Positions 2,766-29,321 are shown, numbered from the stretch's first letter. The stretch is DNA of 32,000 nt from Microcystis aeruginosa NIES-843 (GCF_000010625.1 NC_010296.1:3810001-3842000), one strand, 5' to 3'. Translations and numbers: made by a program. The notes: generated by a model from the sequence alone, not told the origin.

Positions 2766-2839
2766 AAATTATGCAGCAGTTATCCTAAGGGTGAGGATAG
2801 AAGTTTTGGTGGGTGCATCTCAACACAACTCTCAACTCT

Positions 2840-2961
2840 GGGAGCATCTCACCTTTGTAACCCCTAAATCAGGTTTTTATGTCAAGCTATTTTGAAAGCC
2901 TTGCTGGAAACCAGTTTTAGGTATAAATATAATTACTCACTTGCATAAATGAGATGCTCCC
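2840..2961. mobile_element. 122-bp MITE-like element with 12-bp terminal inverted repeats GGGAGCATCTCA / TGAGATGCTCCC
   Basis: Perfect 12-nt inverted termini at 2840-2851 and 2950-2961. It is flanked on both sides by TCTCAACTCT, which could be a 10-bp TSD or part of a CTCAACT heptamer tract. A related terminus GGGTGCATCTCA occurs at 2811 and its complement at 3331-3343. Confidence 0.55.
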
Positions 2962-3209
2962 TCTCAACTCTCAACATTTGCAGAAATACCGACAATAAGC
3001 AATTATCAGTGACTCTTAAATTGGTACAAAAATATGAACAATCGCGTCTAAGCATCCCACCGAAAAACTAATGCGCTCCGGGGTTTGGGGGCGGCGCCAC
3101 GACCCCAACGGGGGGTTTGGGGGGTTCTACCCCCCAAAAGCTTGGATTGAGTGATAAAATCGGAAGTAACGCCCAATTTTAAAAGAGAGTTTCCCTTTAA
3201 AAATCCCAA

Positions 3210-3336
3210 CTTAGTAGATTTACGAAAGTGAGATTCAGTTCCTGTTCTTTGATTGTAACTGGCTACTTAGTTGATGATAGGTGGTGCGTTAGTAACGCAC
3301 CCTACGTTTTACTTAGTAGATTTACAAAAGTGAGAT
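3210..3336 (+). repeat. Two copies of a 25-nt direct repeat CTTAGTAGATTTAC(G/A)AAAGTGAGAT (3210-3234, 3312-3336)
   Basis: 24/25 identical by eye. The second copy continues into GCACCC, the inverted partner of GGGTGCATCTCA at 2811, which suggests two MITE right ends. Confidence 0.6.
3283..3301. repeat. Near-perfect palindrome GGTGCGTTA-g-TAACGCACC (member of a small hairpin-repeat family)
   Basis: 9-nt arms that are exact reverse complements. A sibling GGTGTGTTA...TAACACACC lies at 20595-20620. Confidence 0.6.
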
Positions 3337-3367
3337 GCACCCTATTTAATTCTCAGGAAAAAGCCTG

Positions 3368-3373
3368 TATAAT
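3368..3373 (+). promoter_or_regulatory. Consensus -10 hexamer TATAAT 39 nt upstream of the 191-aa gene
   Basis: Exact TATAAT with no convincing -35. Position only. Confidence 0.3.
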
Positions 3374-3411
3374 GACAGCTATAGTCCGATTCTTATCGCA
3401 GGATTATACCT

Positions 3412-3987
3412 ATGGCTAAATCCAAAAAACACAATCTGCAATGGATCAAAGAAACCCTCGATTTAAATCCAGATCATAACTGGAAATCTAGTCCGGGTAA
3501 TAGTATTTTTGTAGCTGGTCGCGGTGCAGTGCGCTTTGAAGTTCCCCAAGATTGGCATTTTGAACCCGATGATAATTCCTTTCGTTTTTTGGATAGAAAA
3601 CCCCCCGATGATGATTGTCGTTTAGAGGTTTCCTATAATTTACTTCCCCCCGGAGATTGGAAAGAATTACCCCTAAAAGGAATGGTCAAAAAGTTAGCTC
3701 GTGAAGATAGCCGCAATCCTCACGAAATTGGCGAAGTTATCCAAGAAAAACGCCAAACTGCGCGCATTGTTTGGGTGCAAATTCAATTCATCGACCCCCA
3801 AGAAAATCGGCCAGCTTATTCGCGCATTGCCGTGGGCATTGGTTCCGGGGTTCAATGTTTAATTACTATGGATTATTGGGTCGATGATGCGGAAAAATTC
3901 ACCCCCGTCTGGGATACGGTTATCTCCTCCCTGGTGTTAGGTTTATACATTCGCGATCCCCGCAGCGGTTTAGCTTTCCCCGACTAA
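3412..3987 (+). CDS. Hypothetical protein, 191 aa (no family recognised)
   Basis: Long ORF with plausible composition. Its last 93 nt recur at 16468-16560, so it is a real conserved unit. I recognise no catalytic motif. Confidence 0.7.
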   Translation: MAKSKKHNLQWIKETLDLNPDHNWKSSPGNSIFVAGRGAVRFEVPQDWHFEPDDNSFRFLDRKPPDDDCRLEVSYNLLPPGDWKELPLKGMVKKLAREDSRNPHEIGEVIQEKRQTARIVWVQIQFIDPQENRPAYSRIAVGIGSGVQCLITMDYWVDDAEKFTPVWDTVISSLVLGLYIRDPRSGLAFPD

Positions 3988-4255
3988 AGGTAATAGCAAT
4001 TTTGTAGGAAAATTTCCTTGACAAAAAACCTTAATTGTGATAAAGGAAAAATTGATCGCTCGACTCTGGTGGGGATAAGTACCTAAGCAAAATTAATTAC
4101 ACATATCTAACCCCCCCTTGCCTCTTGGCTCCTGCATGAGTGCCTTTCTTCACTAGGAAATTTATTTTGCACGACTACTTAGCTGCCGGTTCCCGCATTG
4201 ACGGGATGTGCAGGAAAGCAAGAGGCACTGAGACTTAAGCGCAAGCTATGACCTT
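3970..4255 (-). pseudogene. Dead 3' stub of a CocE/NonD hydrolase gene (last ~60 codons), split by a MITE
   Basis: Matches the 3' end of the intact hydrolase gene (16543-16724), including its stop codon. There is no upstream coding continuation beyond 4255. Confidence 0.75.
4078..4179. mobile_element. 102-bp MITE, termini AGTACCTAAGCAAAAT ... ATTTTGCACGACTACT, TA target-site duplication
   Basis: Present in the left copy of the 257-bp duplication and absent from the right copy, which has the empty site GGGGA-TA-GCTGCC at 16649-16650. TA is found at 4076-4077 and 4180-4181. A sibling copy lies at 31158-31244. Confidence 0.8.
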
Positions 4256-4257
4256 TA

Positions 4258-4285
4258 AGTACCTAAGCAAAATTAATCACATATA
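4258..4285. mobile_element. Solo left terminus of the same MITE family (TA + AGTACCTAAGCAAAATTAATCAC...)
   Basis: Same first ~25 nt as the elements at 4078 and 31158. No matching right end was found nearby. It sits exactly at the island-side edge of the 257-bp duplication. Confidence 0.45.
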
Positions 4286-4367
4286 CATGAGTTAATCTGA
4301 GAGACAGTTCATTCGATATGCGATTACCCTGTAATACTAAATCCTGTTTAAAAGGGATAGAAGAGTG

Positions 4368-4388
4368 GGGAGCAGGGAGCAGGGAGCG
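4368..4388. repeat. Heptamer tandem repeat (GGGAGCA)x3, STRR-like
   Basis: GGGAGCA GGGAGCA GGGAGCG read directly. Confidence 0.8.
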
Positions 4389-4846
4389 GGGATTAGTGAG
4401 AGGAAGTTCGAGGATTTGTACTAAAATTCCCAATAGGCAGTTTAAATGCAGTACAGCTTACAGCATTTCTCAGATAGATGAGGTTTGCTCTTGCATCTGA
4501 AATACTTGATTAGCAAGGAGCAGTCTGTGCTTCACCTTTACGAGAAAGGCTGTATATAAAACTTTCTAGTTTTGACCGTTAAAACTGGATTTCGATAGTA
4601 ATCAACTCCCTAACGGGGGAAAGAAGACGAAGGCAATTAATCCCTACAGCAGTGTCTTTTTGCTCCTATAAAATAAAGCTTAATATCTCTATCTAAAGGG
4701 ATATGATTAATTTTCCTAGCTCCTATAGAATAACCAGTAAGAGATGAGCAAAATATGAAAGCATATAACTGACTGTCTAAAGTTAAATTATTCTTCCTCG
4801 ATACATTTCTTGAATTTAAACCTCAGTCATATATATGAATACCCTA

Positions 4847-4970
4847 AGTACAGGACAAAAAATAATTTCTTCTCTGGCAAAAATGGTTCCAAGCTTTATC
4901 TGGAGAGACTTTCGGGATTATGTTCCAAAAGTGCTACCGTGCAAGGCTTTCAAAGATTTTGTCCTGTACT
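4847..4970. mobile_element. 124-bp MITE with perfect 14-bp terminal inverted repeats AGTACAGGACAAAA / TTTTGTCCTGTACT
   Basis: The termini at 4847-4860 and 4957-4970 are exact reverse complements. TA lies at the left flank and GA at the right. It shares the AGTAC tip with the 4078 family. Confidence 0.7.
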
Positions 4971-5103
4971 GAGATGAATACCTTCATCTGTAATTAGCAG
5001 GGCTAACCCTTTGAAATTATCACCGATATTAGCAAGGAAATTATCTACAATCACCATGCTATTAAACCTTTGTCGACCAATTATAAACTAGGATAAAACA
5101 CTG

Positions 5104-5544
5104 ATGAAAGTCCTATTAGTTGCCTCGACGGGAGGTCATTTCCAAGCGATGCAAAAACTGCGACTTTTTTGGGAAAACCACAATTGTTGTTGGGTCACTT
5201 TTCGTACCCCCGAAACCCAAGAAATCTTGCAAGACTATCCAGTTTATTGGGCTTATGCCCCGACTAATCGCAATATTCCCAACCTATGGCGTAATTTTGT
5301 CTTAGCAGCCCAAGTTCTTCTCAAAGAACGTCCTCAATTAATTTTATCTACAGGGGCAGGAGTTGCCGTTCCCTTTATCATTTTGGGCAAGTTATTGGGA
5401 TGTAAAACAGTCTTTGTTGAGTCTTTTACACGGGTTGAAGCTCTCAGTTTATCGGCACGATTAGCCCAACCGTTTTTAGATGTTATCTATGTGCAGTGGG
5501 AACAGCTAAAACAACGTTATGCTAAGACCGAAATGGTAAATTAA
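5104..5544 (+). CDS. Alg14-like / Cps14F-like glycosyltransferase membrane-anchor (enhancer) subunit
   Basis: KVLLVASTGGH...WVTF...PTNRN...STGAGVAVPF...VESFTRV...VQWEQL closely follows the Cps14F/Alg14 pattern as I remember it. It lies directly upstream of the Alg13-like partner. Confidence 0.85.
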   Translation: MKVLLVASTGGHFQAMQKLRLFWENHNCCWVTFRTPETQEILQDYPVYWAYAPTNRNIPNLWRNFVLAAQVLLKERPQLILSTGAGVAVPFIILGKLLGCKTVFVESFTRVEALSLSARLAQPFLDVIYVQWEQLKQRYAKTEMVN

Positions 5545-5553
5545 CCGATATTT

Positions 5554-6105
5554 ATGGCAATTGTCGAGGAAAATACTATGATTCTAGTCACTGTCGGTAC
5601 AGAGCAGTATCCTTTTAATCGTCTGATGGAATGGATAGATAGTTTAATCAAACTAAGTATAATTTCTCCAGAAGAAAAAGTGATTGTCCAATACGGTTCT
5701 TGTACCCATTTACCGAAAAATGTGGAAGCATACCCGATTTTGCAGCCAACAGAGTTTCAAGACTTAGCCCAAAAAGCCCGTTTAATTATTGCCCATTGTG
5801 GAGAAGGAACGATTGATTTATTGGCGACCTTGAAGGTTCCCTTTATTTTAGTTCCCCGTTCCCATATTTTCGGTGAACACGTTGACAATCATCAACTAGA
5901 ATTAGCGGCAGCTCTCCGGCTGAAAGGAATTTGTATTGCCCAATCGAAGCAGGAATTAGCTTACTTTGTCAGTGAGCCTAAACTGACCAGTTTAGGGAAA
6001 GCTCCCACGGATTATTATCACGATATCTGTGATTCTTTAAGTCAACGCTTTCAGGATAGGGCTCTCTTATTCCTCTTATTGTGTGATCAGTTTAACTTAC
6101 TATAG
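5554..6105 (+). CDS. Alg13-like / Cps14G-like glycosyltransferase catalytic subunit (Glyco_tran_28 C-terminal type)
   Basis: MILVTVGTEQYPFNRL...HCGEGT...VPR...GEHVDNHQLELA is the Alg13/Cps14G signature. The real start may be the ATG at 5578 (MILVTVGT). Confidence 0.85.
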   Translation: MAIVEENTMILVTVGTEQYPFNRLMEWIDSLIKLSIISPEEKVIVQYGSCTHLPKNVEAYPILQPTEFQDLAQKARLIIAHCGEGTIDLLATLKVPFILVPRSHIFGEHVDNHQLELAAALRLKGICIAQSKQELAYFVSEPKLTSLGKAPTDYYHDICDSLSQRFQDRALLFLLLCDQFNLL

Positions 6106-6580
6106 AAGCGATCAATCTTTGTGTCCTCTGTGTCTCTGTGGTTCCTTCCACTCGCTCGCCAGCAGGACTGTATCTTAGAATACATTTTACCCACCAAACT
6201 CAAGAGAGCCAGGATAGTTACGAGCCTCGTCTAGCTTCTACTTGGCGGAAAGTATCTCTCTCTAGAAAACTCCGAAAAATTTCCGAGGGATTGTTTGTAG
6301 AAATCAGCTACCTGTGGAAAAACCTTAGCCGCTATCTCCACTTTTCCTTTCTTCAGTCCTGTCCTTTAGGAATGTCTTCACTTTAAGACCTGGCACTATA
6401 TAAGAGGGAAAACTGTCTATTAACTGTCTATTAATTGACGCAATTGTGATTAAAATCACGGTTAGATCGAGGTAAGTCTGTTTCAGTAGATTTATATTTT
6501 CCAGTGATTTAACACTCACTTGTCTTCAGACAACTTATAATTTATTCTTTCCAAAAGTCAACTATTTTTAGGAATCAACT

Positions 6581-7705
6581 ATGGCTAATCGATTAAGAGT
6601 GATCATGCTCGGACCTGATCCCCACGAACAGGGCGGCATGGGGTCAGTGGCTTCTTTGATTTTAAATACACCTATACCCAATATTAAAATTCAATATTTG
6701 TCCACTTGGAAAGCTTATTCGGGCAAGGCAAAAATCGGCAATTTGTTGCATTTAATTGCCACCTTTAACCAAGCATTTCTGTCTTTTTTGCGCCTGTTAT
6801 TGCAGGGAAAAGTTGACGTAGTGCATCTTCACCTCTCGGAAAGGGGCAGTGCTTTAAGAGTCAGTATTATGATGGTCTTTGCCCTGATTTTTCGTAAACC
6901 GATTATTATCCATGCCCACGGTTGTGAATTTCATGAATTCCACGATAACTTAGCTGCACCTCTGAAAAAAAGCTTGGATTGGCTGCTACAACAATGCACC
7001 TATCTGATTGCCCTATCCCAAAGCTGGCAGAATTATTATATTTATCATTGTGGCCTAAAAAGTTCTCAGGTTTTGCTCCTAAATAATCCCGTACAGCTGC
7101 CCGCCCAAATTCCCGAACGTCAAAACAGACAGCAATTAAATTTAGTTTTTTTAGGTAGAATAATTCAACGCAAGGGAGTATACGACCTCCTGCACGCTCT
7201 CGCCAGACTAAGCCAAGAATCCCTAGGCAAAATCCATTTAATTTTAGCGGGTAGCGGTGAAGTTGACCAAGCTCAAGCTCTCGCCCAAGATTTAGGCATA
7301 GAACCATATATTAGTTTCCCTGGTTGGATTAACCCCCAAGAACGCGAGCAGCTCCTTGCCCAAGCAGATATTTTTCTGTTACCTTCCTACAATGAGGGGC
7401 TACCCATGGCCCTTTTAGAAGCCATGAGTTGGGGACTAGCGGTAATTACTACACCCGTGGGCGGCAGTGGCGAAGTTGTAATTCACCAACAGACAGGTTT
7501 ATTGGTTAATCCTGGCGATAGGCAAGGATTGGCAGATCAGTTGGAATTATTGGTCAATAATGAATCACTACGCCTAAAATTAGGGAAAAATGCCCGAGAG
7601 TTCGTTACTCCTTTGGATATCAATAACTACAATAGGTCTCTTGCCAACCTATACCAATTAGCCCTTAGAGCAGCCAAATCTTTGGCTGTAGAACCAAGTT
7701 TTTAG
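6581..7705 (+). CDS. GT4-family (group 1) glycosyltransferase
   Basis: 374 aa with the C-terminal EGLPMALLEAMSWGLAVITTPVGG E-x7-E motif region. Confidence 0.88.
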   Translation: MANRLRVIMLGPDPHEQGGMGSVASLILNTPIPNIKIQYLSTWKAYSGKAKIGNLLHLIATFNQAFLSFLRLLLQGKVDVVHLHLSERGSALRVSIMMVFALIFRKPIIIHAHGCEFHEFHDNLAAPLKKSLDWLLQQCTYLIALSQSWQNYYIYHCGLKSSQVLLLNNPVQLPAQIPERQNRQQLNLVFLGRIIQRKGVYDLLHALARLSQESLGKIHLILAGSGEVDQAQALAQDLGIEPYISFPGWINPQEREQLLAQADIFLLPSYNEGLPMALLEAMSWGLAVITTPVGGSGEVVIHQQTGLLVNPGDRQGLADQLELLVNNESLRLKLGKNAREFVTPLDINNYNRSLANLYQLALRAAKSLAVEPSF

Positions 7706-7716
7706 TACCTAAATTT

Positions 7717-9834
7717 ATGGAAAACCGACACCTAACTGAGGAAATTGATTTCCTCAAATACTGGTCAATTGTTAAGCGTCATTGGCTCCCCGCCACGGCT
7801 GTGGCAATGTTGCCATTAATGGCCTTGCTATACTTAGCTTTTTCGTCCGAAAAACAATACGAAGCTTCTGGTAAACTCAAGTTTAAACGAGAAAATGTTA
7901 CCTCTGCCTTGGTCACGGAAGCGGGTGAGAAAATTGGCAAACTCGATTCGTTAAAAGTTCAAGATACACCTCTAGATACAGAAGCAGAAATTTTGCAATC
8001 GGCTCCCATAGTTACTGAAGTGATTAAAAACTTAAATCTTAAGGACAAAAAAGGAGAATTGCTGATATATGAAGACTTTTTAAAGAATTTAAAAGTTACT
8101 AACATACCGGGTACCGATATTTTGATGGTTAGTTATAGAAGTCCCAGTGGAGATCAGTCCGCAAAAGTAGTTAATGAGGTGATGAAGAACTATTTAAAAA
8201 ATAATATCACCTTGAATCGGGCAGAGGTCGAGGCGGCTAAACAATTTGTTAGTCAACAATTACCGAAAGCTGAAAAAGCTTTAAGAGAAGCAGAAAGTAA
8301 TTTACAAAGCTTTAAAACCAAGAATCAGATCGTTGATTTGCGAGGAGAGGCAAGCCTACTTGTACAGCAAATTGGGCAATTAGATCAACAAATTAGTCAA
8401 CTGCAAGGAGAAAAGGCTAAAGTGGCAGCAAAAAGTCAAGAACTACGCCAAAATATCGGCACAAATCCCCAAAAAGCGATCGCTCAAAGTAAGGTTAATA
8501 ATTCCATTGCTGTACAGAATGCTCGCCTGAAACTGCAAGAGGTGGAAAGAGAATTGGCCGTGGAACGCACCCGTTATACAGAAGCTAACCCAGTGGTGAT
8601 AACATTAAGAGACAAACAAGCGGTTTTAAAGAATTTATTGAATCGGGCAGTCCAAGAAGCGATGACACAACCCGGAAGTAATTCTCGCGTGTCTCAAAGC
8701 AAGGACTTACAGGACAGTTTGACAGAATATCTAGTCAGTAATGAAGCGGAAAATAAAGGTCTAATCAAGCAATTAACTTCTCTACAAGAAACAAAAGCTG
8801 CCTATGCTCAACGGGCTAAACAAATTCCACAACTAGAGCAAAGCCAAAAAGTTTTAGAGCGTCAAGTGGAAATTGCTCAAACTTCCTACCAAGCACTCAG
8901 AAAAAATCTCCAGGAGCTAGAAATTACCGAAAAACAGCAGGTAGGCAATGCTCAAATTGTCAGTGATGCTGTGCTTTCTAAATATCCGAAATCATCGCAA
9001 AAACAGTTAGAGACTATCGGTATAGTTGTAGGGGGTATAACTTATTTATTAACGACTTTTCTGTTAGAATTGGTTTCTCCTTCACTTAAAAGTATTAAAG
9101 AGATCAAGAAAATTTTTCCCTATACCTTTTTAGGTTCTTTGCCTCGACCAAATAAAAAAATGACTAATATCATTCTTCAAGAACAGCCCAATTCCCTATT
9201 TAGTCAAGCCTATCGCCGCGTTTTGTCCCAAATCACTATTGCTAATCCCGACAAAAATCCGATAACTGTTATTGTTACCAGTAGCATTTTTGGAGAAGGA
9301 AAATCAGAAGTAGCTGCTAATTTAGCTCTGGCTAAAGCTGAACTTGGTAGTCAGGTTTTAATAATTGATGCTGATCTCCCTAATCCTCAACAACAGAGAA
9401 TTTGGTCTTTAGACAATGATCAAGGCTTAAGTGATATTTTGGCAAGAAAAACTCAATTATCTTTAGCAATCAAGAATATTAGTAAAAATCTCGATCTTAT
9501 CTTAGCAGGTCATCAAGTTATTAACCCATTAGCTCTATTTAATAGTGATAAAATGGAGAGTTTATTGTACGAAAGCCTCGAAACTTATGACTTTATTATT
9601 ATCGATGCGCCGCCGTTGCTTTTGAATGATATTACTCTCCAAATTAGCCCCAAAACAGACGGGATTATTTTCGTAGTCAACCCAGAAAAACTAGAGACCA
9701 CCACAGCCATACAAGTGCAAGAAATACTGAAGAAATATCAGTATAACCTGCTTGGTTTAGTCGTTAATGGAGTGAGAATTAATCGGGAATCAGAACCTTA
9801 TTTTCGCTATGCCAAAAGCTACTTTAACTCTTGA
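7717..9834 (+). CDS. wzc: Polysaccharide co-polymerase / BY-tyrosine-kinase, Wzc/GumC-like
   Basis: N-terminal Wzz-type TM segment, then a long coiled-coil periplasmic region and a second TM. Walker A is SSIFGEGKSEV, Walker A'-like is VLIIDADLPNP and Walker B is YDFIIIDAPPLL. The C-terminal tail contains three Tyr (PYFRYAKSYFNS). Confidence 0.88.
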   Translation: MENRHLTEEIDFLKYWSIVKRHWLPATAVAMLPLMALLYLAFSSEKQYEASGKLKFKRENVTSALVTEAGEKIGKLDSLKVQDTPLDTEAEILQSAPIVTEVIKNLNLKDKKGELLIYEDFLKNLKVTNIPGTDILMVSYRSPSGDQSAKVVNEVMKNYLKNNITLNRAEVEAAKQFVSQQLPKAEKALREAESNLQSFKTKNQIVDLRGEASLLVQQIGQLDQQISQLQGEKAKVAAKSQELRQNIGTNPQKAIAQSKVNNSIAVQNARLKLQEVERELAVERTRYTEANPVVITLRDKQAVLKNLLNRAVQEAMTQPGSNSRVSQSKDLQDSLTEYLVSNEAENKGLIKQLTSLQETKAAYAQRAKQIPQLEQSQKVLERQVEIAQTSYQALRKNLQELEITEKQQVGNAQIVSDAVLSKYPKSSQKQLETIGIVVGGITYLLTTFLLELVSPSLKSIKEIKKIFPYTFLGSLPRPNKKMTNIILQEQPNSLFSQAYRRVLSQITIANPDKNPITVIVTSSIFGEGKSEVAANLALAKAELGSQVLIIDADLPNPQQQRIWSLDNDQGLSDILARKTQLSLAIKNISKNLDLILAGHQVINPLALFNSDKMESLLYESLETYDFIIIDAPPLLLNDITLQISPKTDGIIFVVNPEKLETTTAIQVQEILKKYQYNLLGLVVNGVRINRESEPYFRYAKSYFNS

Positions 9835-9906
9835 CTATCTTGATTAAATACTATATACATAAAAAGTATTTTAGTTATATTAAAATCTCTGAATTTACCC
9901 TAAAAA

Positions 9907-10833
9907 ATGAACGCATATCCCCTAGTATCTATTATCATCCCTGCCTATAACACTGAATCCTATATTGCCAAAGCTATTCAATCTGCCCAAGAGCAAACCT
10001 TAACCAATATAGAAATCATTGTTATTGATGATTGTTCCACCGATAACACTCTTGCCATTGCCCAAAGTTTTAATGATCCCCGTATTATAATTATCCATAA
10101 TTCAGAAAATCTTGGAGTAGCATCTACCAGAAACAAGGCAATTAAATTGGCAAAAGGTAGCTGGTTAGCTCTCTTAGATTCCGATGATTGGTATGAACCA
10201 AACCGCCTGGAAACTCTCTTGGAAGTTGCCCAAAAAACTCAGGCAGATCTAGTTAGCGATGATGTGTATCTCATTTATGATCAAGCACCGTCGCCCTGGA
10301 CAACAGTAATTAAAATGAGTGGGCAAACCCTTGCTCACCCCCTGGTATTAGAGCCAATTTCTTTTATTACAAAACAAAAGTTTGAAAGTAAAAGCCTCTT
10401 TGTCACGATGACTAAACCAATTATCAATCGTCAATTCTTACTAGCGCATAATCTTGAATACGATCCCACTCTCAGACAAGGACAAGATTATTGGTTTTAT
10501 TTAGACTGTTTGTTAAAGGAGGCTAAGTTTATTTTTTATCCCTATCCCTACTATTATCAAAGAACTAGACCAGGCTCCCTGACTCAGCAAAAAACCTCCC
10601 TAAGACTAGAATCTTACTGTCGAGCTAACCAAAAGTTTTTAGAAAAAATAGAAGTAAAAAATAGTCGAGAATTAACCAGAGCTTTAGTTAAGAATTTGCG
10701 TCATCTTCAGAGGTTTAAAAATTATTATAAAGTTGTTGAACCCCTGAAAGAGGGAAAATTTTTGGAGGCCCTACAAGCCCTCAATATCGATTTCTTGCTC
10801 CTGTTCTTGCAACGCATTCCCACACTTTTATAA
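9907..10833 (+). CDS. GT2-family glycosyltransferase
   Basis: VSIIIPAYNTESYI...IIVIDDCSTDNT...LLDSDDW is the typical GT-A/GT2 N-domain. Confidence 0.9.
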   Translation: MNAYPLVSIIIPAYNTESYIAKAIQSAQEQTLTNIEIIVIDDCSTDNTLAIAQSFNDPRIIIIHNSENLGVASTRNKAIKLAKGSWLALLDSDDWYEPNRLETLLEVAQKTQADLVSDDVYLIYDQAPSPWTTVIKMSGQTLAHPLVLEPISFITKQKFESKSLFVTMTKPIINRQFLLAHNLEYDPTLRQGQDYWFYLDCLLKEAKFIFYPYPYYYQRTRPGSLTQQKTSLRLESYCRANQKFLEKIEVKNSRELTRALVKNLRHLQRFKNYYKVVEPLKEGKFLEALQALNIDFLLLFLQRIPTLL

Positions 10834-10872
10834 AACCATCTATCCCAAAAACCCGCTTAGGAAAAAACTATT

Positions 10873-12255
10873 ATGAGCTTAAGAGCAAAAGTGATGCGTG
10901 GGGGAGCTTATCTAGCAGGACGGCAAGGTCTAGGTATGGTCTTAAGTATTATCAGTGTCTTCTTAGTTACCCGTCTAATCGGTCCAGAAAATTATGGATT
11001 ATTTGTATCGGCATTTGGAGTTTTTTCCTATCTGCAACGGATTTTTCAGCTAGGAATTAATTTTTATCTAATTCGAGAGATTAATCCAGAAGAAGAACCG
11101 CATAATTATCATCAGGGATTTACCCTCATGCTTCTACTAGGTATTCTTGGTTTAATACTAGGAATTATTACCATTCCTTTGCTGGCACAATGGATTAAGA
11201 TAGGCAATTTTTCAGCCCTTGCCATATCCCTATTTTTTAGTTTACCTTTTGTCCTCTGTTTTCAAATTCCCTTAGCTAAATTAGAAAGAGAATTAAACTA
11301 TAAAAAAGTTGCCATGATTGAATTGCTCAATCAATGCCTCTACGTTTTAGTAAGCGTTTATTTCGCCTTCCAGGGAGCGGGAGCATGGGCATTAGTAGCG
11401 GCTTGGTGGGCGCAAACTCTCCAGTCAGTGGTGCTGTTTTTCTGGTGTTCCGGTTATCGTCCTCGATTATTCTGGAATCTCGCTTTAGTCAAAGATATGT
11501 TAGGCTACGGCATAACTTTGTCCGCAGCCCAGTGGATTTTCTTTTTGCGAGACCTAGTTAATCCCCTGCTGGTGGGACGTTTTGGCGGAGCAGAAGCCGT
11601 CGGTTTTGTTGCCTTAGCCATTCGTTTAGTTGAAGTTCTCAGTTTTGTTAAACACGCAACTTGGCGTATTTCCATGGCCGCCTTAGCCAAAATTCAAGAT
11701 AACCCGCCCAAGCTACGCTGGGCAATTACCGAGGGTATGAGCCTACAAGTCCTCGCTCTCGGCCCGATTTTGGATGTAGTCGCATGGACTTTACCTTTGA
11801 TTATCGGTTTGGCTTTTGGGGAACGCTGGCGCGTCGCCCTACAGGTATATCCCTTTATTGCCTGGGCTTATTTGACTAATTCCCTCTTTAATCTCCATTC
11901 TTCCACACTCTACGTTCTCAGAAAAAATACCTATGTGGCTTTATTTCACCTTCTCCACGTCGCCCTTTTTGCAGGAGGAGCTTGGTTACTGTTGCCAAAA
12001 TTAGGTATTGTTGGCTATGGATGGGCAGAAGTTATCGCCCTTCCCGCTTATGGTCTGATTCACCTTTTTATTACTAAAATCATTGGCAGCCCCGATTATC
12101 GTTTAGCCCTCCTCTGGTGGGCGGCCTGTTCTCTTCCCTTATTTGTTCAACAATTGGGTATGTGGACGGGTTTCGGTCTAATTTTTGTGATCCTACTGCC
12201 GATAACACGCCAACAAATTCGCAGTTATTGGCATAGTTTTCAACATTCTTCCTGA
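10873..12255 (+). CDS. wzx: Oligosaccharide flippase (MOP superfamily, Wzx-like)
   Basis: 460 aa and multi-TM throughout. The N-terminus GGAYLAGRQGLGMVLSIISVFLVTRLIGPENYGLF is typical of Polysacc_synt proteins. Confidence 0.8.
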   Translation: MSLRAKVMRGGAYLAGRQGLGMVLSIISVFLVTRLIGPENYGLFVSAFGVFSYLQRIFQLGINFYLIREINPEEEPHNYHQGFTLMLLLGILGLILGIITIPLLAQWIKIGNFSALAISLFFSLPFVLCFQIPLAKLERELNYKKVAMIELLNQCLYVLVSVYFAFQGAGAWALVAAWWAQTLQSVVLFFWCSGYRPRLFWNLALVKDMLGYGITLSAAQWIFFLRDLVNPLLVGRFGGAEAVGFVALAIRLVEVLSFVKHATWRISMAALAKIQDNPPKLRWAITEGMSLQVLALGPILDVVAWTLPLIIGLAFGERWRVALQVYPFIAWAYLTNSLFNLHSSTLYVLRKNTYVALFHLLHVALFAGGAWLLLPKLGIVGYGWAEVIALPAYGLIHLFITKIIGSPDYRLALLWWAACSLPLFVQQLGMWTGFGLIFVILLPITRQQIRSYWHSFQHSS

Positions 12256-12272
12256 TTTTTCCTGAACAGCCC

Positions 12273-13217
12273 ATGATTAACCCCAATCAGTCGCCCCTAG
12301 TCAGCATTTTAATCAATAACTATAACTATGCTGGTTTTTTACCGGCAGCGATTTCTAGTTCCCTAGAACAAACCTATCCCCATCTGGAGATAATTGTGGT
12401 AGATGACGGTTCCCAGGATCGTTCTCGTCAGGTGATAGAAGAATACGGTCAGCAAATTATCCCCATATTCAAAGTTAATGGTGGTCAAGCTTCCGCTTTT
12501 AATCAGGGTTTTGCTGCTAGTAGCGGAGAAATTATCTGTTTTTTGGATGCAGACGATTTATTTAGTCTTAATAAAGTTGAAAAGGTCGTAGAGATTTTTC
12601 AGGACTATCCCGATATTGGTTGGTGTTTTCACTCCTTGCAGATGTTTACAGATAAAACTGCTGCCCCAGACCATGCTACCCCAAAATCAGTCAATTCAGG
12701 AGTTTATGATTTAAGAAATTGCTTGTCCCAGGGAAAACTGCGAGGAAAAATGCCCTTTGAGGGTACAGCCACCTCTGGCATCTGTTTTCGCCGCTCTTTT
12801 TTAGAGCAGTTATTACCCATGCCCGAAGAAATTAGAATTACTAGCGATGATTACTTAAAATACGCCGCTTTTGCCCTAACTCCGGGCTATATTCTCCTAG
12901 AAAAACTTGCCCAACAAAGAATCCATGCTAACAACGCTTATACTTTACGAAAAAACCAAAAATCTTTACGGGGTAAAATTAATATCTTAACTGCCTTTTG
13001 GCTTAAAAGTAATTTTCCGCAAATGTCGAAATTTACTAACAATATTTTTACTCTCGGCTATAGCTTCTATAATCGAGAAGATAATGGCGACCCGCACCTA
13101 AAACTTCTCATTCACAAGTATTTCTGTTCTCTTACCATAGGAGAAAAAATAGAAGTCCAGATCAGAAGAATTTATTATTGTTTGAAATCAAAGATTAATC
13201 CTCTTTTTCAACCATGA
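12273..13217 (+). CDS. GT2-family glycosyltransferase
   Basis: VSILINNYNYAGFL...IIVVDDGSQDRS...FLDADD motifs. Confidence 0.9.
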   Translation: MINPNQSPLVSILINNYNYAGFLPAAISSSLEQTYPHLEIIVVDDGSQDRSRQVIEEYGQQIIPIFKVNGGQASAFNQGFAASSGEIICFLDADDLFSLNKVEKVVEIFQDYPDIGWCFHSLQMFTDKTAAPDHATPKSVNSGVYDLRNCLSQGKLRGKMPFEGTATSGICFRRSFLEQLLPMPEEIRITSDDYLKYAAFALTPGYILLEKLAQQRIHANNAYTLRKNQKSLRGKINILTAFWLKSNFPQMSKFTNNIFTLGYSFYNREDNGDPHLKLLIHKYFCSLTIGEKIEVQIRRIYYCLKSKINPLFQP

Positions 13218-14500
13218 TCAGAATCCCCCCACTACTGGAAAAGTTTATAACTATTTTTAGTCTAATTTTTTACACACGACTATTTTCTTTTGAAAGCTTA
13301 TTTGTCCATTCCGAGGGGGAATTAGCCGTCAGTTCTCCTGACTATACTCCCTTAGATCCACTTCTCTCTTTAATGCAGCATGGAATCGCTTTTGTGGTTT
13401 TGGTGCTAATGGCTCTCCGTTGGCAACATACCATCGGATTTTTTGGCCGTAATCCCTTTCTTTGGTTACTAATTATTCTGGTACTAATTTCCGCTAACTG
13501 GTCGAATTTTCCTGAGATTACCCAAAGACGTTCCTTCGCTTTTTTAGAAACTTGTCTATTTGCCTTATATTTTGCCTCGCGCTACGCAATTAAAGAACAA
13601 CTAAGACTAACAGCTTATGCTTTAGGCATCACTGCTATTATTAGTTTTTTCTTCAGCCTTGCCTTCCCCTCTAGTGCTTTAGAATCGGGAGTCCATGCTG
13701 GCTCATGGAGGGGTCCTTTTCTCCATAAAAATCTCTTTGCTCGTTTAATGACCTTAATTTGTCTAGTTAACCTACTGGTCACACCAGTTAATCGGAGAGA
13801 AGGCTATCTATTTTTAGCCTTTTGCTGTCTCTCTTTTGGAATGATTGGACTTAGCACTTCTAAAAGCGCTCTTTTTATCGGTATAATCCTATTCATACTA
13901 ATGCAAATTTACCAAACTATTTCTTGGCAAGATTATATCAGAATTCCCCTCTGGTTAACTGGGCTTTTACTGGCAGGTTCTTTATTTCTTTGGATCGGGA
14001 TGAATTTAGAAGATATTATTACTGCTTCTGGTCGAGATTTAACCCTATCAGGAAGAACTATTATTTGGTCTGCTGTTCTTGATAAAATCCAAGAAAGACC
14101 TTGGCTAGGTTATGGATATGTAGGGTTTTGGTATGGATTAAAAGGACCTTCTTCCTATGTACAGAAAGCCTACGGTACTACCTATATACCTCCCCACTCT
14201 CATAATGGCTTCCTCGAACTAGCTATTGCTTTCGGATTAGTGGGAACTATCCTATTTATTATGAGTTTTTTATTAGTTATAAGACGCACAATTATCTCTG
14301 CTATTTATCAATCCCATCACGAGGGTTTATGGCCGTTGATGTACTTATCATTTCTGATACTATATAATCAAACTGAGTCCACTTTACTCGAACATAACTC
14401 CATTTTTTGGTTGTTGTATATGTCCCTAGCTCTATCTCCTTTTTTACCTCAGCATAATGCTCAATTAAACTATGAACAAAATAGCGTTTTTTCTCAGTGA
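13214..14500 (+). CDS. O-antigen ligase/polymerase family membrane protein (Wzy-like)
   Basis: 428 aa and polytopic, with the PPHSHNGFLELAIAFGLVG motif of the Wzy_C/O-antigen ligase family. Its start overlaps the upstream stop (ATGA). Confidence 0.8.
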   Translation: MIRIPPLLEKFITIFSLIFYTRLFSFESLFVHSEGELAVSSPDYTPLDPLLSLMQHGIAFVVLVLMALRWQHTIGFFGRNPFLWLLIILVLISANWSNFPEITQRRSFAFLETCLFALYFASRYAIKEQLRLTAYALGITAIISFFFSLAFPSSALESGVHAGSWRGPFLHKNLFARLMTLICLVNLLVTPVNRREGYLFLAFCCLSFGMIGLSTSKSALFIGIILFILMQIYQTISWQDYIRIPLWLTGLLLAGSLFLWIGMNLEDIITASGRDLTLSGRTIIWSAVLDKIQERPWLGYGYVGFWYGLKGPSSYVQKAYGTTYIPPHSHNGFLELAIAFGLVGTILFIMSFLLVIRRTIISAIYQSHHEGLWPLMYLSFLILYNQTESTLLEHNSIFWLLYMSLALSPFLPQHNAQLNYEQNSVFSQ

Positions 14501-15569
14501 TTTAGATGGCGGTGGGGCCGAACGAGTTATACTTAACTTGGCTAATGGTTTTGCCCAACAGGGAGAATTTGTTGATCTAGTTTTAGCTCGAAAAGAAGGT
14601 TTATACTTAGGACAGATTGACCCCGGGGTGAATACTATAGATTTAAAAGCCAAAAGTCTGTTTAGGAGTATCCCCTCCCTAGTCAAATATCTACAAAATC
14701 AACGTCCACAAGCCATGATATCAGCCCTAGAAGATACCAATATTGTTGCTCTTATGGCTAAAATCCTAGCAAGGAAAAAAATATCTGTCTTTGTGACAGT
14801 ACATAATAACTTATCTCAAGAAATACGCCATGCTCAACAGTGGAAGCGCAAAATAGTTCCCTATTTTTTGCGATGGATTTATCCCTTTGCTTACCGAGTG
14901 GTTTGTGTTTCCCAAGGAGTGGCTCAAGATTTAGTTAAATTTGGCATCCAACCACGACAAATCCGAGTAATTTATAATCCGATTGTTACCCCAGAATTAA
15001 TCGTCAAACTGCAAGAAAACCTAGAACATCCTTGGTTTTTACTTGGTCAGCCGCCAGTAATTTTAGGAGTGGGAAGACTCAATCATCAAAAAGATTTTCC
15101 TACCCTAATTCGGGCTTTTGCTTTAGTTCGACGAGTGCAACCCGCTAGATTATTAATACTAGGAGAAGGAGAGACCCGCAGCGAACTTATATCGTTGATT
15201 AAAGAACTAAATTTAGATACAGACGTACAATTAGAGGGATTTGTCGAAAATCCTTTTGCTTATATGAAAAAGGCACAGGTTTTAGTATTATCCTCCGCTT
15301 GGGAGGGTTTTGGTAATGTTTTGGTAGAGGCAATGGCTGCTGGCATTGCAGTGGTATCGACGGATTGCCCTAGCGGACCAGAGGAAATTTTAGATAAAGG
15401 AAAATACGGTTCCCTAGTGGCGATCGCTGATTCAGCAGCTATGGCAGCGGCAATTCTTAATACCTTGAAAAATAACGTCGATCCGAGTTGGCTAAAAAAT
15501 AGAGCCGAGGAGTTTTCTTTAGAAAAAATCCTGGATCAATACCGTTTACTAATAGAGAAAAAACTTTAG
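14472..15569 (+). CDS. GT4-family glycosyltransferase
   Basis: LDGGGAERV N-terminus and EGFGNVLVEAMAAGIAVVSTDCPSGPEEIL. It overlaps the upstream gene by 29 nt. Confidence 0.88.
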   Translation: MNKIAFFLSDLDGGGAERVILNLANGFAQQGEFVDLVLARKEGLYLGQIDPGVNTIDLKAKSLFRSIPSLVKYLQNQRPQAMISALEDTNIVALMAKILARKKISVFVTVHNNLSQEIRHAQQWKRKIVPYFLRWIYPFAYRVVCVSQGVAQDLVKFGIQPRQIRVIYNPIVTPELIVKLQENLEHPWFLLGQPPVILGVGRLNHQKDFPTLIRAFALVRRVQPARLLILGEGETRSELISLIKELNLDTDVQLEGFVENPFAYMKKAQVLVLSSAWEGFGNVLVEAMAAGIAVVSTDCPSGPEEILDKGKYGSLVAIADSAAMAAAILNTLKNNVDPSWLKNRAEEFSLEKILDQYRLLIEKKL

Positions 15570-15588
15570 TGGATTTTTATCTAAAATT

Positions 15589-16230
15589 ATGAAAAAATTG
15601 CAGTCTTTTCAACTGATTTTAGCAGCGATTCAAGCAGATCTTGATCGCTATGTTGTTACCGACAATTTGTCTTGGCTAGAAGTGGTTTTAACCAAAAGAG
15701 GTTTTTGGGCGACCTTGCAATATCGTGTCAGTCGTTGGATTCATTTTCATTTCCATTTTCCTATTCTCCGGAGTCTCCTAAAAGCTATTTGCCTCATTTG
15801 GCGTTTAATCCTTGAAATGATTACTGGCATAGAATTACCTAACCGGGCTGAAATTGGTCAGGGTTTGTTTATACCCCACGCTCACGGCATTATTGTTCAC
15901 TGCGATGTTCAAATTGGCGAATACTGTAATTTAAGCCAAGAAGTGACTATTGGTGTGGCTGGCCGGGGAGAAAAAGCGGGAGTGCCTAAAATTGGGGATC
16001 GTGTATATATTGCCCCTGGTGCGAAAATTTTTGGATCGATTATTATTGGTGATAATGTAGCCATCGGTGCTAATGCAGTAGTTACAAAAGATTTACCCGA
16101 TCAGGCGGTGGCGGTGGGTATCCCCGCTAAAGTTATTAGTTATCAAGGTTCAGAAGATTTTATTCTCTATCGAGAAACCCCAAAAAATTCTCAGAAAGTT
16201 TTCCCAACCTCTTTTCAAGATCGACCCTAG
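15589..16230 (+). CDS. Hexapeptide-repeat O-acetyltransferase (serine acetyltransferase-like, polysaccharide-modifying)
   Basis: Left-handed beta-helix repeats IGDRVYIAPGAKIFGSIIIGDNVAIGANAVV, with a CysE/WcaB-like N-terminal helical region. Confidence 0.85.
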   Translation: MKKLQSFQLILAAIQADLDRYVVTDNLSWLEVVLTKRGFWATLQYRVSRWIHFHFHFPILRSLLKAICLIWRLILEMITGIELPNRAEIGQGLFIPHAHGIIVHCDVQIGEYCNLSQEVTIGVAGRGEKAGVPKIGDRVYIAPGAKIFGSIIIGDNVAIGANAVVTKDLPDQAVAVGIPAKVISYQGSEDFILYRETPKNSQKVFPTSFQDRP

Positions 16231-16467
16231 AAGTCTTGAACTATAGCTTCGCCAAGTACGAAAGCGACTAATGATATTCTCAATCTTAATTGAAATGACT
16301 ATAATATTGTCGCCATAATAAACTCTTTTGCTAGAACTATTAAGACAATATCAAAGAAACGGCGTTGTTTAATCAAGATATGAATACTAAAAGTTAGCCT
16401 ATTACTAGGTTTTAAAAATTGCAAAAGAAGACAATTCGTGCTTAAAATCAATCGGCAACGCCAGGAC

Positions 16468-16560
16468 AAATTCACCCCCGTCTGGGATACGGTTATCTCC
16501 TCCCTGGTGTTAGGTTTATACATTCGTGATCCCCGCAGCGGTTTAGCTTTCCCCGACTAA
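16468..16560 (+). pseudogene. Dead 3' stub (last 31 codons + stop) of the 191-aa gene
   Basis: Reads KFTPVWDTVISSLVLGLYIRDPRSGLAFPD-stop, identical in protein to the end of 3412-3987. No upstream homology before 16468. Confidence 0.75.
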
Positions 16561-16724
16561 AGGTAATAGCAATTTTGCGGGAAAATTTCCTTGACAAAAA
16601 ACCTTAATTGTGATAACAGAAAAATTGATCGCTCGACTTGCGTGGGGATAGCTGCCGGTCCCCGCATTGACGGGATGTGCAGGAAAGCAAGAGGCACTCA
16701 GACTTAAACGCAAGCTATGACCTT
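16468..16724 (+). repeat. Right copy of the 257-bp direct duplication (uninterrupted)
   Basis: See 3895-4255. It contains the MITE empty site at 16649-16650. Confidence 0.85.
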
Positions 16725-18201
16725 GAGGAATAGTGATAAAAGTGGCCTGTAGGGCAATATTTAGGGGCGATTCGGGATTATTTACCCGTTTATAACCCTG
16801 AGTGATATTAAAAACCCGACCATCGGGGGTAACTTGAGAAACCACCGCGCAGATATCGAAACTAACCGCATCTGCTTGACAATAACAATCCAGACGGGGA
16901 CTACCCAAAATCGTTAAATCTTTCTCTAGGGGGGGAGAAGTGTAGGTAATCACATCACTGCGACAGTCTAGCATAGTGCGGTCGAATATTCCCCCCGGTA
17001 GGGCGCTATGACCTCCTAAAGATGGGACCGGTCGCCAAGGATCGTGAACGATGGTATCCTCGATCGCAGGTTCTAACAAAATCGCGCTTAATTTCCCCTC
17101 ATCCTCGCGCAGATTGGCTAAACCTTGACTAGCAAGATAATAAATTTGCTGATTTTCTCTGGGAAACTTTTCCAGATATCGCCATTGATTAGACCCCATT
17201 TGAAATAGATACATAGGAGGATTTTCAAATAACTCCACTTCCTGACCTTTTAAGAAATAATCAAACCATTGCAGCTGCATTTTATCCACGGGACTAATTG
17301 CCTGTTGACCATAATCTATCTCTCCTACTTTTCTCCCCCAGGGTAGATGAGTCCAAGCACCAATAATTAGCTGTTGGGGATAGATAGAACGCGCTTGCAT
17401 TTCTTGGTATAAACCCAAAGTTCCCCGGAGATGAGGATCGAACCAACCCCCGATATGTAACATCGGTAAATCGATATTTTTTAAAAGGTTTTGCGGGGAT
17501 AATTTTTGCCAATATTCATCGGGAAGATAACGAGTAATCCACTCGTGATAAAAAGAATCGGCGGCTAAATCTTGCAGAATTTGGGGAGAGGCAGCAATAG
17601 GATCAAAAAGGGGTAAATTTCGGGAAGCTACCCAGAGTTTTTGATAGGCAGTTTCGTCCCCTTTTAATCTAGCTGTTTCCGCCGCTAATTGTATTGCCCA
17701 AGCGAGATTATATTGTAAATTAAATGCTTCGTTTTCATAGCCCCAATCTCGATATAAATCGTGAGCGATCATTGCTGGGCAAATAGTTTTTAAAGCAGCA
17801 TGACCATTAGTAGCGGCGTATAATTGAGTCATTCCCTGATAGGAAAAACCATACATTCCCACCACACCCGTATTATTAGGAATAGTTAAAACCCATTCAA
17901 TGGTTTCTAATCCGTCCCTAATTTCATGGGCAAATAAATTAAAATTTCCCGTCGAGTTTCCCCGTCCCCGGACATCCTGAATTACCACAATATAACCCTG
18001 ACGTGCATACCAGCTAGGATGGGCATAAACCACCGTAGAAGCGATCGCTTTTCCGTAGGGTTGTCGCATTAGTAAAATGGGCAAAGATTCCCTACTATCG
18101 GGACGATAAATATCGGCAACTAAACTAATTCCATCTCTGGTGATTAAACTAGCCGTTTCTTTTTTTATGGGGTAGGGATTAAACATTATTATCTCTTTCA
18201 A
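16543..18201 (-). CDS. CocE/NonD-family hydrolase (X-Pro dipeptidyl-peptidase S15 type)
   Basis: LLMRQPYGK, VIQDVRGRGNSTG and GMYGFSYQG (nucleophile Ser) motifs plus a C-terminal beta-sandwich region. The start may be the Met at 18186 (MFNPYP). Confidence 0.88.
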   Translation of the reverse strand: MKEIIMFNPYPIKKETASLITRDGISLVADIYRPDSRESLPILLMRQPYGKAIASTVVYAHPSWYARQGYIVVIQDVRGRGNSTGNFNLFAHEIRDGLETIEWVLTIPNNTGVVGMYGFSYQGMTQLYAATNGHAALKTICPAMIAHDLYRDWGYENEAFNLQYNLAWAIQLAAETARLKGDETAYQKLWVASRNLPLFDPIAASPQILQDLAADSFYHEWITRYLPDEYWQKLSPQNLLKNIDLPMLHIGGWFDPHLRGTLGLYQEMQARSIYPQQLIIGAWTHLPWGRKVGEIDYGQQAISPVDKMQLQWFDYFLKGQEVELFENPPMYLFQMGSNQWRYLEKFPRENQQIYYLASQGLANLREDEGKLSAILLEPAIEDTIVHDPWRPVPSLGGHSALPGGIFDRTMLDCRSDVITYTSPPLEKDLTILGSPRLDCYCQADAVSFDICAVVSQVTPDGRVFNITQGYKRVNNPESPLNIALQATFITIPQGHSLRLSLSASCFPAHPVNAGTGSYPHASRAINFSVITIKVFCQGNFPAKLLLPLVGES

Positions 18202-18321
18202 ATAAAAAATACGGTCGGGTGGCTCAATCGAGAAAACTTGACAAAGACCAGATAAAGCTTAACTAAATGTTACAATAGAGGCGGACTGCCTCAACTGCCT
18301 AGGACTGGAGAAAAATCAGCG

Positions 18322-20016: not shown

Positions 20017-20065
20017 AATATAAAGCATCACCCTATCCACGATTATCCATTCATTAATTAATCTT

Positions 20066-20521
20066 ATGGCAGCTATAAAAGTAGGCGATCGAGTTCCCAA
20101 TTTTTCTCTCCCTTCCCAAACAGGGGCAACGGTTAATGTCAGCGATTTAATCGGTAAAAAATCCCTGGTAATTTATTTCTATCCCAAAGATGACACTCCG
20201 GGTTGTACCGCAGAATCCTGCGCTTTCCGCGATAGTTACGAAGTGTTTACCGATGCGGGTGCGGAAGTTATTGGTATTAGTGCCGATAGTCCCCAATCTC
20301 ATCAACAATTTGCCCAAAAATATAATCTTCCCTTCACCCTTTTAAGTGATAGCGATAACCGAGTGCGGAAATTATTCGGTGTTCCCTCTACCTTATTCGT
20401 CCTCCCCGGACGAGTTACCTATATCATTGATCAAGAGGGAATCGTCAGACATATTTTCGATTCTATGTTAGATTTTAAAGCTCACGTTACCGAATCTTTG
20501 AACACGATTAAATCTTTTTAG
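20066..20521 (+). CDS. bcp: Peroxiredoxin, Bcp/PrxQ type
   Basis: 151 aa. FYPKDDTPGCTAESCAF contains the peroxidatic and resolving Cys in Bcp spacing. Confidence 0.88.
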   Translation: MAAIKVGDRVPNFSLPSQTGATVNVSDLIGKKSLVIYFYPKDDTPGCTAESCAFRDSYEVFTDAGAEVIGISADSPQSHQQFAQKYNLPFTLLSDSDNRVRKLFGVPSTLFVLPGRVTYIIDQEGIVRHIFDSMLDFKAHVTESLNTIKSF

Positions 20522-20594
20522 GTTGATGATTATGCAAGAAATTAAAACATCTATCCCATAATTGGGACAGTTCTGACTTAAAAATAAAATTAAT

Positions 20595-25854: not shown

Positions 25855-25961
25855 GCTGACGGCGATGATTGAGCCGCTTCTTGGCATGGTAACGACTAGG
25901 GCTGTCCCAAGTGCGGGAAACGGCGATTTTAAAATTTTTACTCTTTATTCAGGAAAAAATC

Positions 25962-26114
25962 ATGTCAACTCCTTTTTTGGTCAAAGATATCCTTCCCGGT
26001 GCCTTTAACTCCTACCCCAAATATCTGACGGCATTATATAGTTTTACCAATAAATGTCAGAACAAAGATGTAGATGTAGGTTGCTCTAATGGGAAGTTTT
26101 GTGACGACAAGTAG
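25962..26114 (+). pseudogene. N-terminal fragment of an ELWxxDGT-repeat-type exoprotein gene
   Basis: MSTPFLVKDILPGAFNSYPKYLTAL... matches the family N-terminus (LVKDIxPGxxSSxPxYLT) and then degenerates into an unrelated tail. The leader and first ~25 codons recur at 31264-31361. Confidence 0.5.
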
Positions 26115-26184
26115 CATTGATGATATTTATGGGGAATAATAGATTTAGATGAGTGCCTAACTTTCCAATTGGTAGCGACTCGCC

Positions 26185-27255: not shown

Positions 27256-27276
27256 TCTCAGGAATTTTCTTCTCCA

Positions 27277-28726: not shown

Positions 28727-28745
28727 ATCAGTTATCAGTGACTAA

Positions 28746-29300: not shown

Positions 29301-29321
29301 TCTCAGGAATTTTCTTCTCCA

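Follow-up and report, generated by a model that had tools for sequence, protein, structure and literature searches.

How could a block of ten polysaccharide genes come to lie between two genes whose 3' ends overlap and leave both of them intact? The question is raised by a 32,000-nucleotide stretch of the Microcystis aeruginosa NIES-843 chromosome (NC_010296.1, 3810001–3842000; here called the window), in which an island of 12,208 bp (4256–16463) is bracketed by two direct copies, R1 and R2, of a short sequence that contains the convergent ends of a gene for a 191-residue protein (gene A) and of a hydrolase gene (gene B). A plain insertion at the A/B overlap would truncate one of the two genes. 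Comparison of island-free and island-bearing loci indicates with high confidence that a strain-variable, horizontally acquired Wzx/Wzy-dependent polysaccharide cassette entered the Microcystis chromosome once, at this overlap. Integration of a circular molecule by a single crossover (Campbell-type integration), suggested in a first-pass annotation made from the sequence alone, appears to be the most likely route of entry and is proposed tentatively.

The duplicated gene junction in island-free and island-bearing loci

After removal of 104 nucleotides at 4078–4181, R1 (3891–4077 together with 4182–4255) aligns with R2 (16464–16724) over 261 nucleotides with no gap and with 12 mismatches (95.4% identity). 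A 261-nucleotide match at 95% identity within 32 kb far exceeds chance expectation; the longest exact run common to the two copies in the window is 59 nucleotides. The first-pass annotation had described the same colinear duplication at 257 nucleotides with about 11 mismatches, so that the repeat itself stands and its dimensions are corrected here. It holds the last 32 codons (not 31, as first counted) and the stop codon of gene A, together with the last ∼60 codons and the stop codon of the hydrolase gene.

Gene A, called as an open reading frame (ORF) at 3412–3987 on the plus strand, is intact and runs into R1, where its stop codon occupies 3985–3987. The first segment of R1 (187 nucleotides, 3891–4077) comprises this gene end and the start of a dead hydrolase stub, and the second (74 nucleotides, 4182–4255) comprises the remainder of the stub. 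The 261 nucleotides of R2 (16464–16724) show the reciprocal arrangement, with a dead 3' stub of gene A (16464–16560) and the functional 3' end of gene B, which is intact on the minus strand at 16543–18201. The stop codon of gene B lies at 16543–16545, with its counterpart in R1 at 3970–3972, and from the placement of the stop codons the two genes overlap tail-to-tail by 18 nucleotides. R1 thus completes gene A and bears a dead B stub, and R2 completes gene B and bears a dead A stub, as had been recognized at the outset. Gene A has no match in the Pfam copy searched; its precomputed annotation is PF27270 (Alr1449), and it is kept in many cyanobacteria at 65–77% amino-acid identity. Gene B encodes a CocE/NonD-family (S15) hydrolase with Peptidase_S15 and PepX_C domains and a TIGR00976 score of 426 bits.

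The empty site predicted from this arrangement exists and is common. When one genome of each species was searched with the 191-residue protein, 12 loci were found in Microcystis and 54 in other cyanobacteria. At 11 of the 12 Microcystis loci, which represent GTDB species, window positions 3346–4077 and 16464–20542 map to one continuous stretch with a single repeat copy, and an exact-protein look-up added seven further island-free loci of the same structure. Genes A and B converge with an 18-nucleotide overlap and one copy of the 261 nucleotides at all 18 of these sites (the empty-site gene calls place the gene for the 191-residue protein at 3001–3576 and the hydrolase gene at 3559–5202, in agreement with the overlap deduced from the window), and none of the 18 holds any other cargo or alternative cassette. 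These results bear out the earlier suggestion of an insertion into an ancestral junction in which the two genes converge. The window is 99.8% identical to the locus of M. viridis NIES-102.

The 54 loci from other cyanobacteria have the gene for the 191-residue protein without an adjacent hydrolase gene and therefore cannot polarize the site. The overlapping A/B junction predates the island structure, because the stubs are copies of functional gene ends. The opposite history, with an ancestral island that was deleted to give the empty sites, was rejected since the stubs must have been copied from an overlapping junction that already existed; it is also countered by an island diversity below that of the flanks (see below) and by the 11 of 12 species representatives that are empty. 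In five island-free loci (L101, L102, L104, L106 and L108) the A/B pair keeps its 18-nucleotide overlap and has a molybdopterin oxidoreductase gene as left neighbour instead of the reductase and Wza genes, suggesting that genes A and B travel together from one context to another.

About 40 island-bearing contigs from isolates, metagenome-assembled genomes and metagenomes were collected by exact-protein look-ups with three island proteins. Every examined contig that covers a junction has it at the same position, 4255/4256 or 16463/16464, the exceptions being L087 and L091 on the one hand and L089, L093 and L094 on the other. The shared junctions, which include those of the divergent locus L090, argue for one historical insertion. 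L090 carries a diverged version of the island, with an Alg14-like gene at 92.6% DNA identity, a 317-residue GT2 glycosyltransferase and 1.7 kb of extra leader filled with miniature inverted-repeat transposable elements (MITEs); only the first 124 nucleotides of its leader are in common with that of the window. L089, L093 and L094 have secondarily lost 27 nucleotides just inside the island at its right junction (window equivalent 16435–16461), a deletion that also cuts a spurious 74-residue minus-strand ORF to 65 residues. L087 and L091 (GCA_046069285.1 and GCA_046068505.1) carry a divergent island version and keep the right repeat and the hydrolase gene, with no gene A or left repeat within the locus; their left neighbours are TerD, PIN and DUF4258 genes, or AraC and an IS605 fragment, a flank that may have been rearranged later or misassembled. 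Two further oddities, what looked like a third partial repeat copy in L068 and what looked like loss of the first two island genes in L070, proved to be scaffold gaps (runs of N). A four-nucleotide GGAC microhomology at the right junction was also discarded, as GGAC is merely the first four bases of the repeat and microhomology is not assessable without the donor context. The junctions are exact enough for typing by polymerase chain reaction or from reads, and the locus thus provides a well defined presence/absence marker for one polysaccharide cassette.

Among the island strains that span both flanks, the mean pairwise difference is 0.62% in the island, 0.18% in its noncoding leader and 0% in the last 74 nucleotides of the left copy, compared with about 2–2.3% in the flanks; R2, at 4.2%, is the most polymorphic segment. 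The 74-nucleotide segment of R1 is invariant across the standard-type island loci and differs only in the divergent L090 version. An island diversity ∼3.5 times below that of the flanks indicates that the island is younger than the lineages that carry it and, together with the diverged backgrounds in which it is found, that it spread between lineages after forming.

Each repeat copy is a mosaic of alleles, reshuffled since the insertion, that can also be found segregating among the empty sites. The three left-copy-private alleles (T at 4005, AAGG at 4044–4045 and G at 4239) all lie in the dead hydrolase stub. Two such alleles (GTAGG and AAAGG) are seen in the right copy of L093/L094 and L089, which shows exchange between the copies; alleles are also exchanged with other strains. 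R1 and R2 always differ from each other among the loci examined. The use of their 12 differences to tell donor from recipient was rejected, because these are mostly alleles segregating in the population or lie in the dead stubs. In L071 and L073 the island and the hydrolase flank are 0–0.4% different from the window, and the right half of the right repeat (16620–16724) is ∼5% different, suggesting that an allele patch of ∼100 nucleotides was swapped and that the repeat is a local recombination hot spot.

The 104 nucleotides that interrupt R1 (4078–4181, plus strand) consist of a 102-nucleotide MITE and a duplicated TA. The element is flanked by TA, has imperfect terminal inverted repeats and has a second copy at 31156–31246. 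It is missing from R1 of L079 and L090, in which the left copy is uninterrupted, and therefore entered R1 after the duplication had formed. At the left island edge (4255/4256), TA is followed by AGTACCTAAGCAAAAT (4258–4273), an exact match to the left terminus of the MITE, just as the first-pass annotation had reported. This solo terminus, with similarity extending to ∼4287, opens the noncoding island leader (4256–5103, plus strand). The description of this leader as MITE-rich is apt for the L090 variant; in the window the leader has the single solo terminus. No matching right terminus was found as its partner, including at the right island edge, where a noncoding, island-specific tail (16231–16463, plus strand) ends at the junction 16463/16464.

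The 102-nucleotide element resembles IS630/Tc1-mariner-type MITEs with a TA target duplication, and a terminus of the same family stands at the left island edge. The island differs from such elements in having neither a second terminus nor a transposase, and 261 nucleotides far exceed a TA duplication. Insertion of a transposon or insertion sequence with a target-site duplication was accordingly rejected on the one-sided MITE terminus, the lack of a transposase in the island and the 261-nucleotide duplication, the length of which had already been judged too great for a transposase.

Polysaccharide genes of the island

All ten ORFs between the repeats lie on the plus strand and bear polysaccharide-synthesis domains, in keeping with the ten polysaccharide genes originally counted. 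The first two encode a PssD/Cps14F-type (Alg14-like) glycosyltransferase subunit (5104–5544; Pfam Alg14, NCBIfam PssD at 122.5 bits against a cut-off of 110) and a PssE/Cps14G-like (Alg13-like) subunit (5554–6105; Pfam Glyco_tran_28_C, NCBIfam PssE at 83.6 bits, below the cut-off of 120). They are followed by a GT4 glycosyltransferase (6581–7705), a Wzc-like polysaccharide co-polymerase/tyrosine autokinase (7717–9834; Wzz, GNVR and P-loop domains, TIGR01007 above its cut-off), a GT2 glycosyltransferase (9907–10833), a Wzx-type flippase (10873–12255; Polysacc_synt_3 and Polysacc_synt), a second GT2 glycosyltransferase (12273–13217), a Wzy-type polymerase or O-antigen-ligase-family protein (13214–14500; Wzy_C), a second GT4 glycosyltransferase (14472–15569) and a hexapeptide-repeat O-acetyltransferase of EpsC/CysE-like type (15589–16230), the glycosyltransferases of families GT2 and GT4 and the acetyltransferase being assigned from domain scans. 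A scan for promoters and terminators gave no signal above that of shuffled sequences.

The island thus holds the Wzx, Wzy, Wzc-like kinase, two GT2, two GT4 and PssD/E-like components of a Wzx/Wzy-dependent locus. The Wza-type outer-membrane polysaccharide export (OPX) component is supplied by a gene outside it: a Wza-like gene (275–1447, plus strand; SLBB and SLBB_2, truncated in the window at its 5' end by ORF calling) is located in the flank, two genes upstream, and is also present in island-free strains. In related loci the full-length gene has Poly_export and SLBB domains. No priming phosphoglycosyl transferase of the WbaP/WecA type (Bac_transf or Glycos_transf_4) was detected among the island and window ORFs scanned, and this enzyme may be encoded elsewhere in the genome. 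The cassette would work with the upstream Wza-like exporter and such a priming transferase, and its product would be one additional type of surface or extracellular polysaccharide.

The Wzy protein belongs to one tight Microcystis cluster (at least 90% identity), and its nearest relative outside this cluster is 64% identical. That relative lies on an unassigned metagenome contig (L097) with the same gene order, Wzc-GT2-Wzx-GT2-Wzy-GT4-acetyltransferase, suggesting that the core of the island is a type of cassette that also occurs outside Microcystis. The next-closest named homologs are cyanobacterial and 53–56% identical. Composition says little about the origin of the island: a comparison of the kind first suggested gives a mildly lower guanine-cytosine (GC) content (39.3% against 42.9% in the flanks), and the tetranucleotide frequencies are not distinctive, with an island–flank correlation of 0.89 that is no lower than the flank–flank correlation of 0.87.

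Strain-specific wzx/wzy systems, in numbers that vary between strains, have been noted in Microcystis (PMC4390846), and a strain-variable island fits this description. Blooms of Microcystis contain a mixture of strains with different surface and extracellular polysaccharides, traits that are linked with colony formation, buoyancy, grazing and phage attack.

Possible routes of entry and loss

The island is flanked by a direct repeat of one contiguous segment, of which each of the 18 empty sites has a single copy, an anatomy that fits Campbell-type integration. In such an event, a circular or circularized DNA made up of the cassette and one copy of the A/B junction would recombine with the recipient junction through a homologous RecA-type single crossover. 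This would duplicate exactly the shared homology with no need for an integrase. Experimental precedent comes from E. coli, in which single crossovers of partly deleted circular molecules with the chromosome left duplications of 109–950 bp of the homologous locus, lacZ (PMC3240628), and M. aeruginosa PCC 7806 is reported to be naturally competent (cited in PMC7690421). The island resembles such integrants, and those of suicide vectors, in that the direct repeats correspond to the shared homology, the empty site is single-copy, no integrase takes part and the event is in principle reversible by recombination between the repeats. It differs in being a natural, population-wide chromosomal polymorphism for which no donor circle was found, and in that the short homology spans two overlapping gene ends and both genes are kept intact. 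By whichever route the duplication arose, selection accounts for its persistence, because with the two genes overlapping by 18 nucleotides an insertion that did not copy the junction would break one of them.

Several points weigh against a Campbell-type origin. No circular donor was found, with no match among 72,556 plasmids, and genes for replication or recombination are absent from the island. Formation of a circle with exactly this 261 bp piece would itself call for two illegitimate joints. The 12 differences between the copies, being mostly alleles that segregate at empty sites or that lie in a stub, cannot show which copy came from a donor. The left junction adjoins a solo MITE terminus, the role of which is unexplained, and the lack of a priming transferase among the island ORFs means that a self-sufficient exopolysaccharide locus is not established. 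Linear routes, or the filling-in of a staggered break, would give the same product. The Campbell-type step is ranked first among the routes considered and is held at somewhat less than even confidence, and the combined statement of structure, history and Campbell-type formation is advanced with similar reserve, just short of an even chance.

One linear route consists of two steps: a plain insertion truncates gene A or gene B, and the damage is then repaired by homology-facilitated illegitimate recombination (HFIR) with island-free DNA, one DNA end pairing in the intact gene and the other joining illegitimately inside the island edge, so that a stub and a duplication are left behind. The end product is the one observed, with two illegitimate joints and both genes intact; selection to restore the truncated gene supplies a rationale, Microcystis is reported to be naturally competent, and short-patch exchange at the repeats is abundant (in L071 and L073 the flanks are window-like and the right copy is 4.8% different). 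The route nevertheless requires three illegitimate joints, one of them later erased, and no intermediate with a truncated gene A or B is present among the about 40 island loci. HFIR during natural transformation is known from Acinetobacter, Streptococcus and Pseudomonas stutzeri; it resembles the present case in that foreign DNA is fixed by one homologous anchor and illegitimate joints with no dedicated mobility genes, and differs in that, as described there, it is expected to delete recipient DNA and not to duplicate it (PMC3240628). In the same work, 56 of 60 recombinants tested were single-crossover duplications and not true HFIR (PMC3240628). The two-step route is considered unlikely.

A staggered break or a replication template switch could instead have cut or switched the two strands 261 nucleotides apart, with foreign DNA joined to both ends and the overhangs filled in, so that a target-site duplication of unusual length results. 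Just the two observed joints would then suffice, and no prior homology in the donor would be needed. The copies formed in this way would be identical at first, and R1 and R2 differ in every locus examined, although all of their differences could derive from later mutation of the stubs and import of alleles. To our knowledge there is no precedent in bacteria for an insertion with a stagger of 261 nucleotides, and this route is judged improbable.

Long duplications of a 3' gene end are familiar from site-specific integration. Phage 21 and e14 integrate inside icd of E. coli and carry a replacement 3' end, so that long imperfect 3'-end duplications flank them; elements of this type recombine at a short crossover core through a tyrosine integrase. 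The island could by analogy be the remnant of an integrase-driven element that carried a replacement 3' end and later lost its integrase. R1 does act as a replacement 3' end for gene A, and the likeness extends to the long imperfect duplication with one functional copy and one dead stub. Here, however, there is no recombinase, att core or phage gene, and two convergent genes are served by the one duplication. Domain searches against Pfam and NCBIfam, which covered the island ORFs and the genes on either side, gave no tyrosine or serine recombinase, and none of the island ORFs has an integrase or transposase domain; no integrase, excisionase or gene of a phage or an integrative and conjugative element (ICE) is present in any island version including the L090 type, the extra 1.7 kb leader of which holds no ORF longer than 56 residues. 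The window contains no tRNA gene, no Rfam match was found, and the 18 empty sites show no other cargo and hence no recurrent use of an att site. An integrase-mediated island, prophage or ICE was rejected on these grounds, and descent from a site-specific element that has lost its integrase seems highly improbable.

A second natural comparison is offered by the variable capsule and O-antigen loci between galF and gnd in E. coli and between dexB and aliA in pneumococci, which are exchanged by homologous recombination in conserved flanking genes. The Microcystis locus is like these in being a Wzx/Wzy cassette at a fixed site, much younger than its flanks and present across diverged backgrounds. 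It is unlike them in that it shows presence or absence and not allelic replacement, there being no alternative cassette in the 18 empty sites, and in the 261 bp duplication that bounds it, which those loci lack. The island is a clean case of recombination-driven insertion and not a new class of mobile element, and it provides a natural example of a gene cluster that has landed between overlapping convergent genes with neither damaged, through general recombination only.

The direct repeats led to the initial suggestion that the island could act as an on/off switch through RecA-dependent loss. An active cassette of this kind would be lost and re-inserted by way of a 12.57 kb circle or a tandem array and would move between strains. 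The copies do exchange alleles, and one metagenome contig (L096; ENA ERZ27272065, contig k141_1886662) hints at such a form: it is a circularly permuted, MEGAHIT-style contig of 12,714 bp with identical first and last 141 nucleotides and has the order island end, repeat with MITE, island start. Subtraction of the 141 nucleotides gives 12,573 bp, the spacing of the repeats, equal to the island plus one repeat copy with its MITE. As the longest exact run shared by R1 and R2 is 59–132 nucleotides in eight strains, below k = 141, collapse of the assembly graph is not automatic. L096 is, however, a single contig from a short-read metagenome assembly, and the same loop could be obtained from a right copy converted to the left type or from pruning of low-coverage flanks. 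For L096, an excised circle, amplification in tandem and a loop artefact of de Bruijn assembly are all conceivable.

The empty sites speak against frequent excision. None of the 18 has left-copy-private alleles or the MITE, although crossovers in the first ∼114 nucleotides would leave no such mark. Pattern scans of the Joint Genome Institute (JGI) metagenome contigs gave no match to the circle junction and none to an MITE-bearing empty site, a weak negative in that the collection offers no positive control; the patterns behaved correctly on the loci in hand. The lack of scars together with the two null scans, the shared exact run of 59 nucleotides and L096 as the sole hint leave the switch unsupported, rare RecA-dependent loss between the repeats being possible in principle. 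An actively excising and re-integrating cassette is accordingly regarded as very improbable, as is an integrase-free mobile form in which RecA loops out the 12.57 kb circle seen as L096 and competent island-free Microcystis take it up and re-insert it by a single crossover. If such a cassette did exist, the type of surface polysaccharide would become both transferable and reversible, perhaps along with colony form or susceptibility to phages, with no dedicated mobility gene involved, and interest in the locus would rise if excision and circle-mediated transfer were shown.

Other features of the window

Upstream of gene A, a 535-nucleotide strain-variable insert (2811–3345) separates it from an aldo/keto reductase gene. 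The insert is absent from L001, L002, L003, L008 and L012, contains 29-nucleotide direct repeats at 3209 and 3311 and probably consists of nested small elements.

To the right of the hydrolase gene, a gene for a voltage-gated chloride channel of the CLC family (21009–22352) has a GC content of ∼60%, compared with ∼42% for the genome. Other Microcystis loci have this gene too, at ∼95.5% identity, and it looks like an older foreign acquisition.

A large block of direct repeats occupies 25926–31351, with 300-nucleotide families at 96–97% identity spaced ∼1.0–2.1 kb apart. Its ORFs are ∼320–356 residues long, and the one that was scanned (26185–27255) has no Pfam match. The block is bounded by a 105-nucleotide repeat, 81% identical between its copies at 25926 and 31247, and by the MITE copy at 31156–31246.

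A truncated TnpB-like ORF of 286 residues (23271–24131, minus strand; OrfB_IS605 and HTH domains) adjoins the start of a histidyl-tRNA synthetase ORF. The synthetase is called shorter in other strains (405 residues), and a piece of the 23271–24131 region is found at the rearranged left flank of L091.

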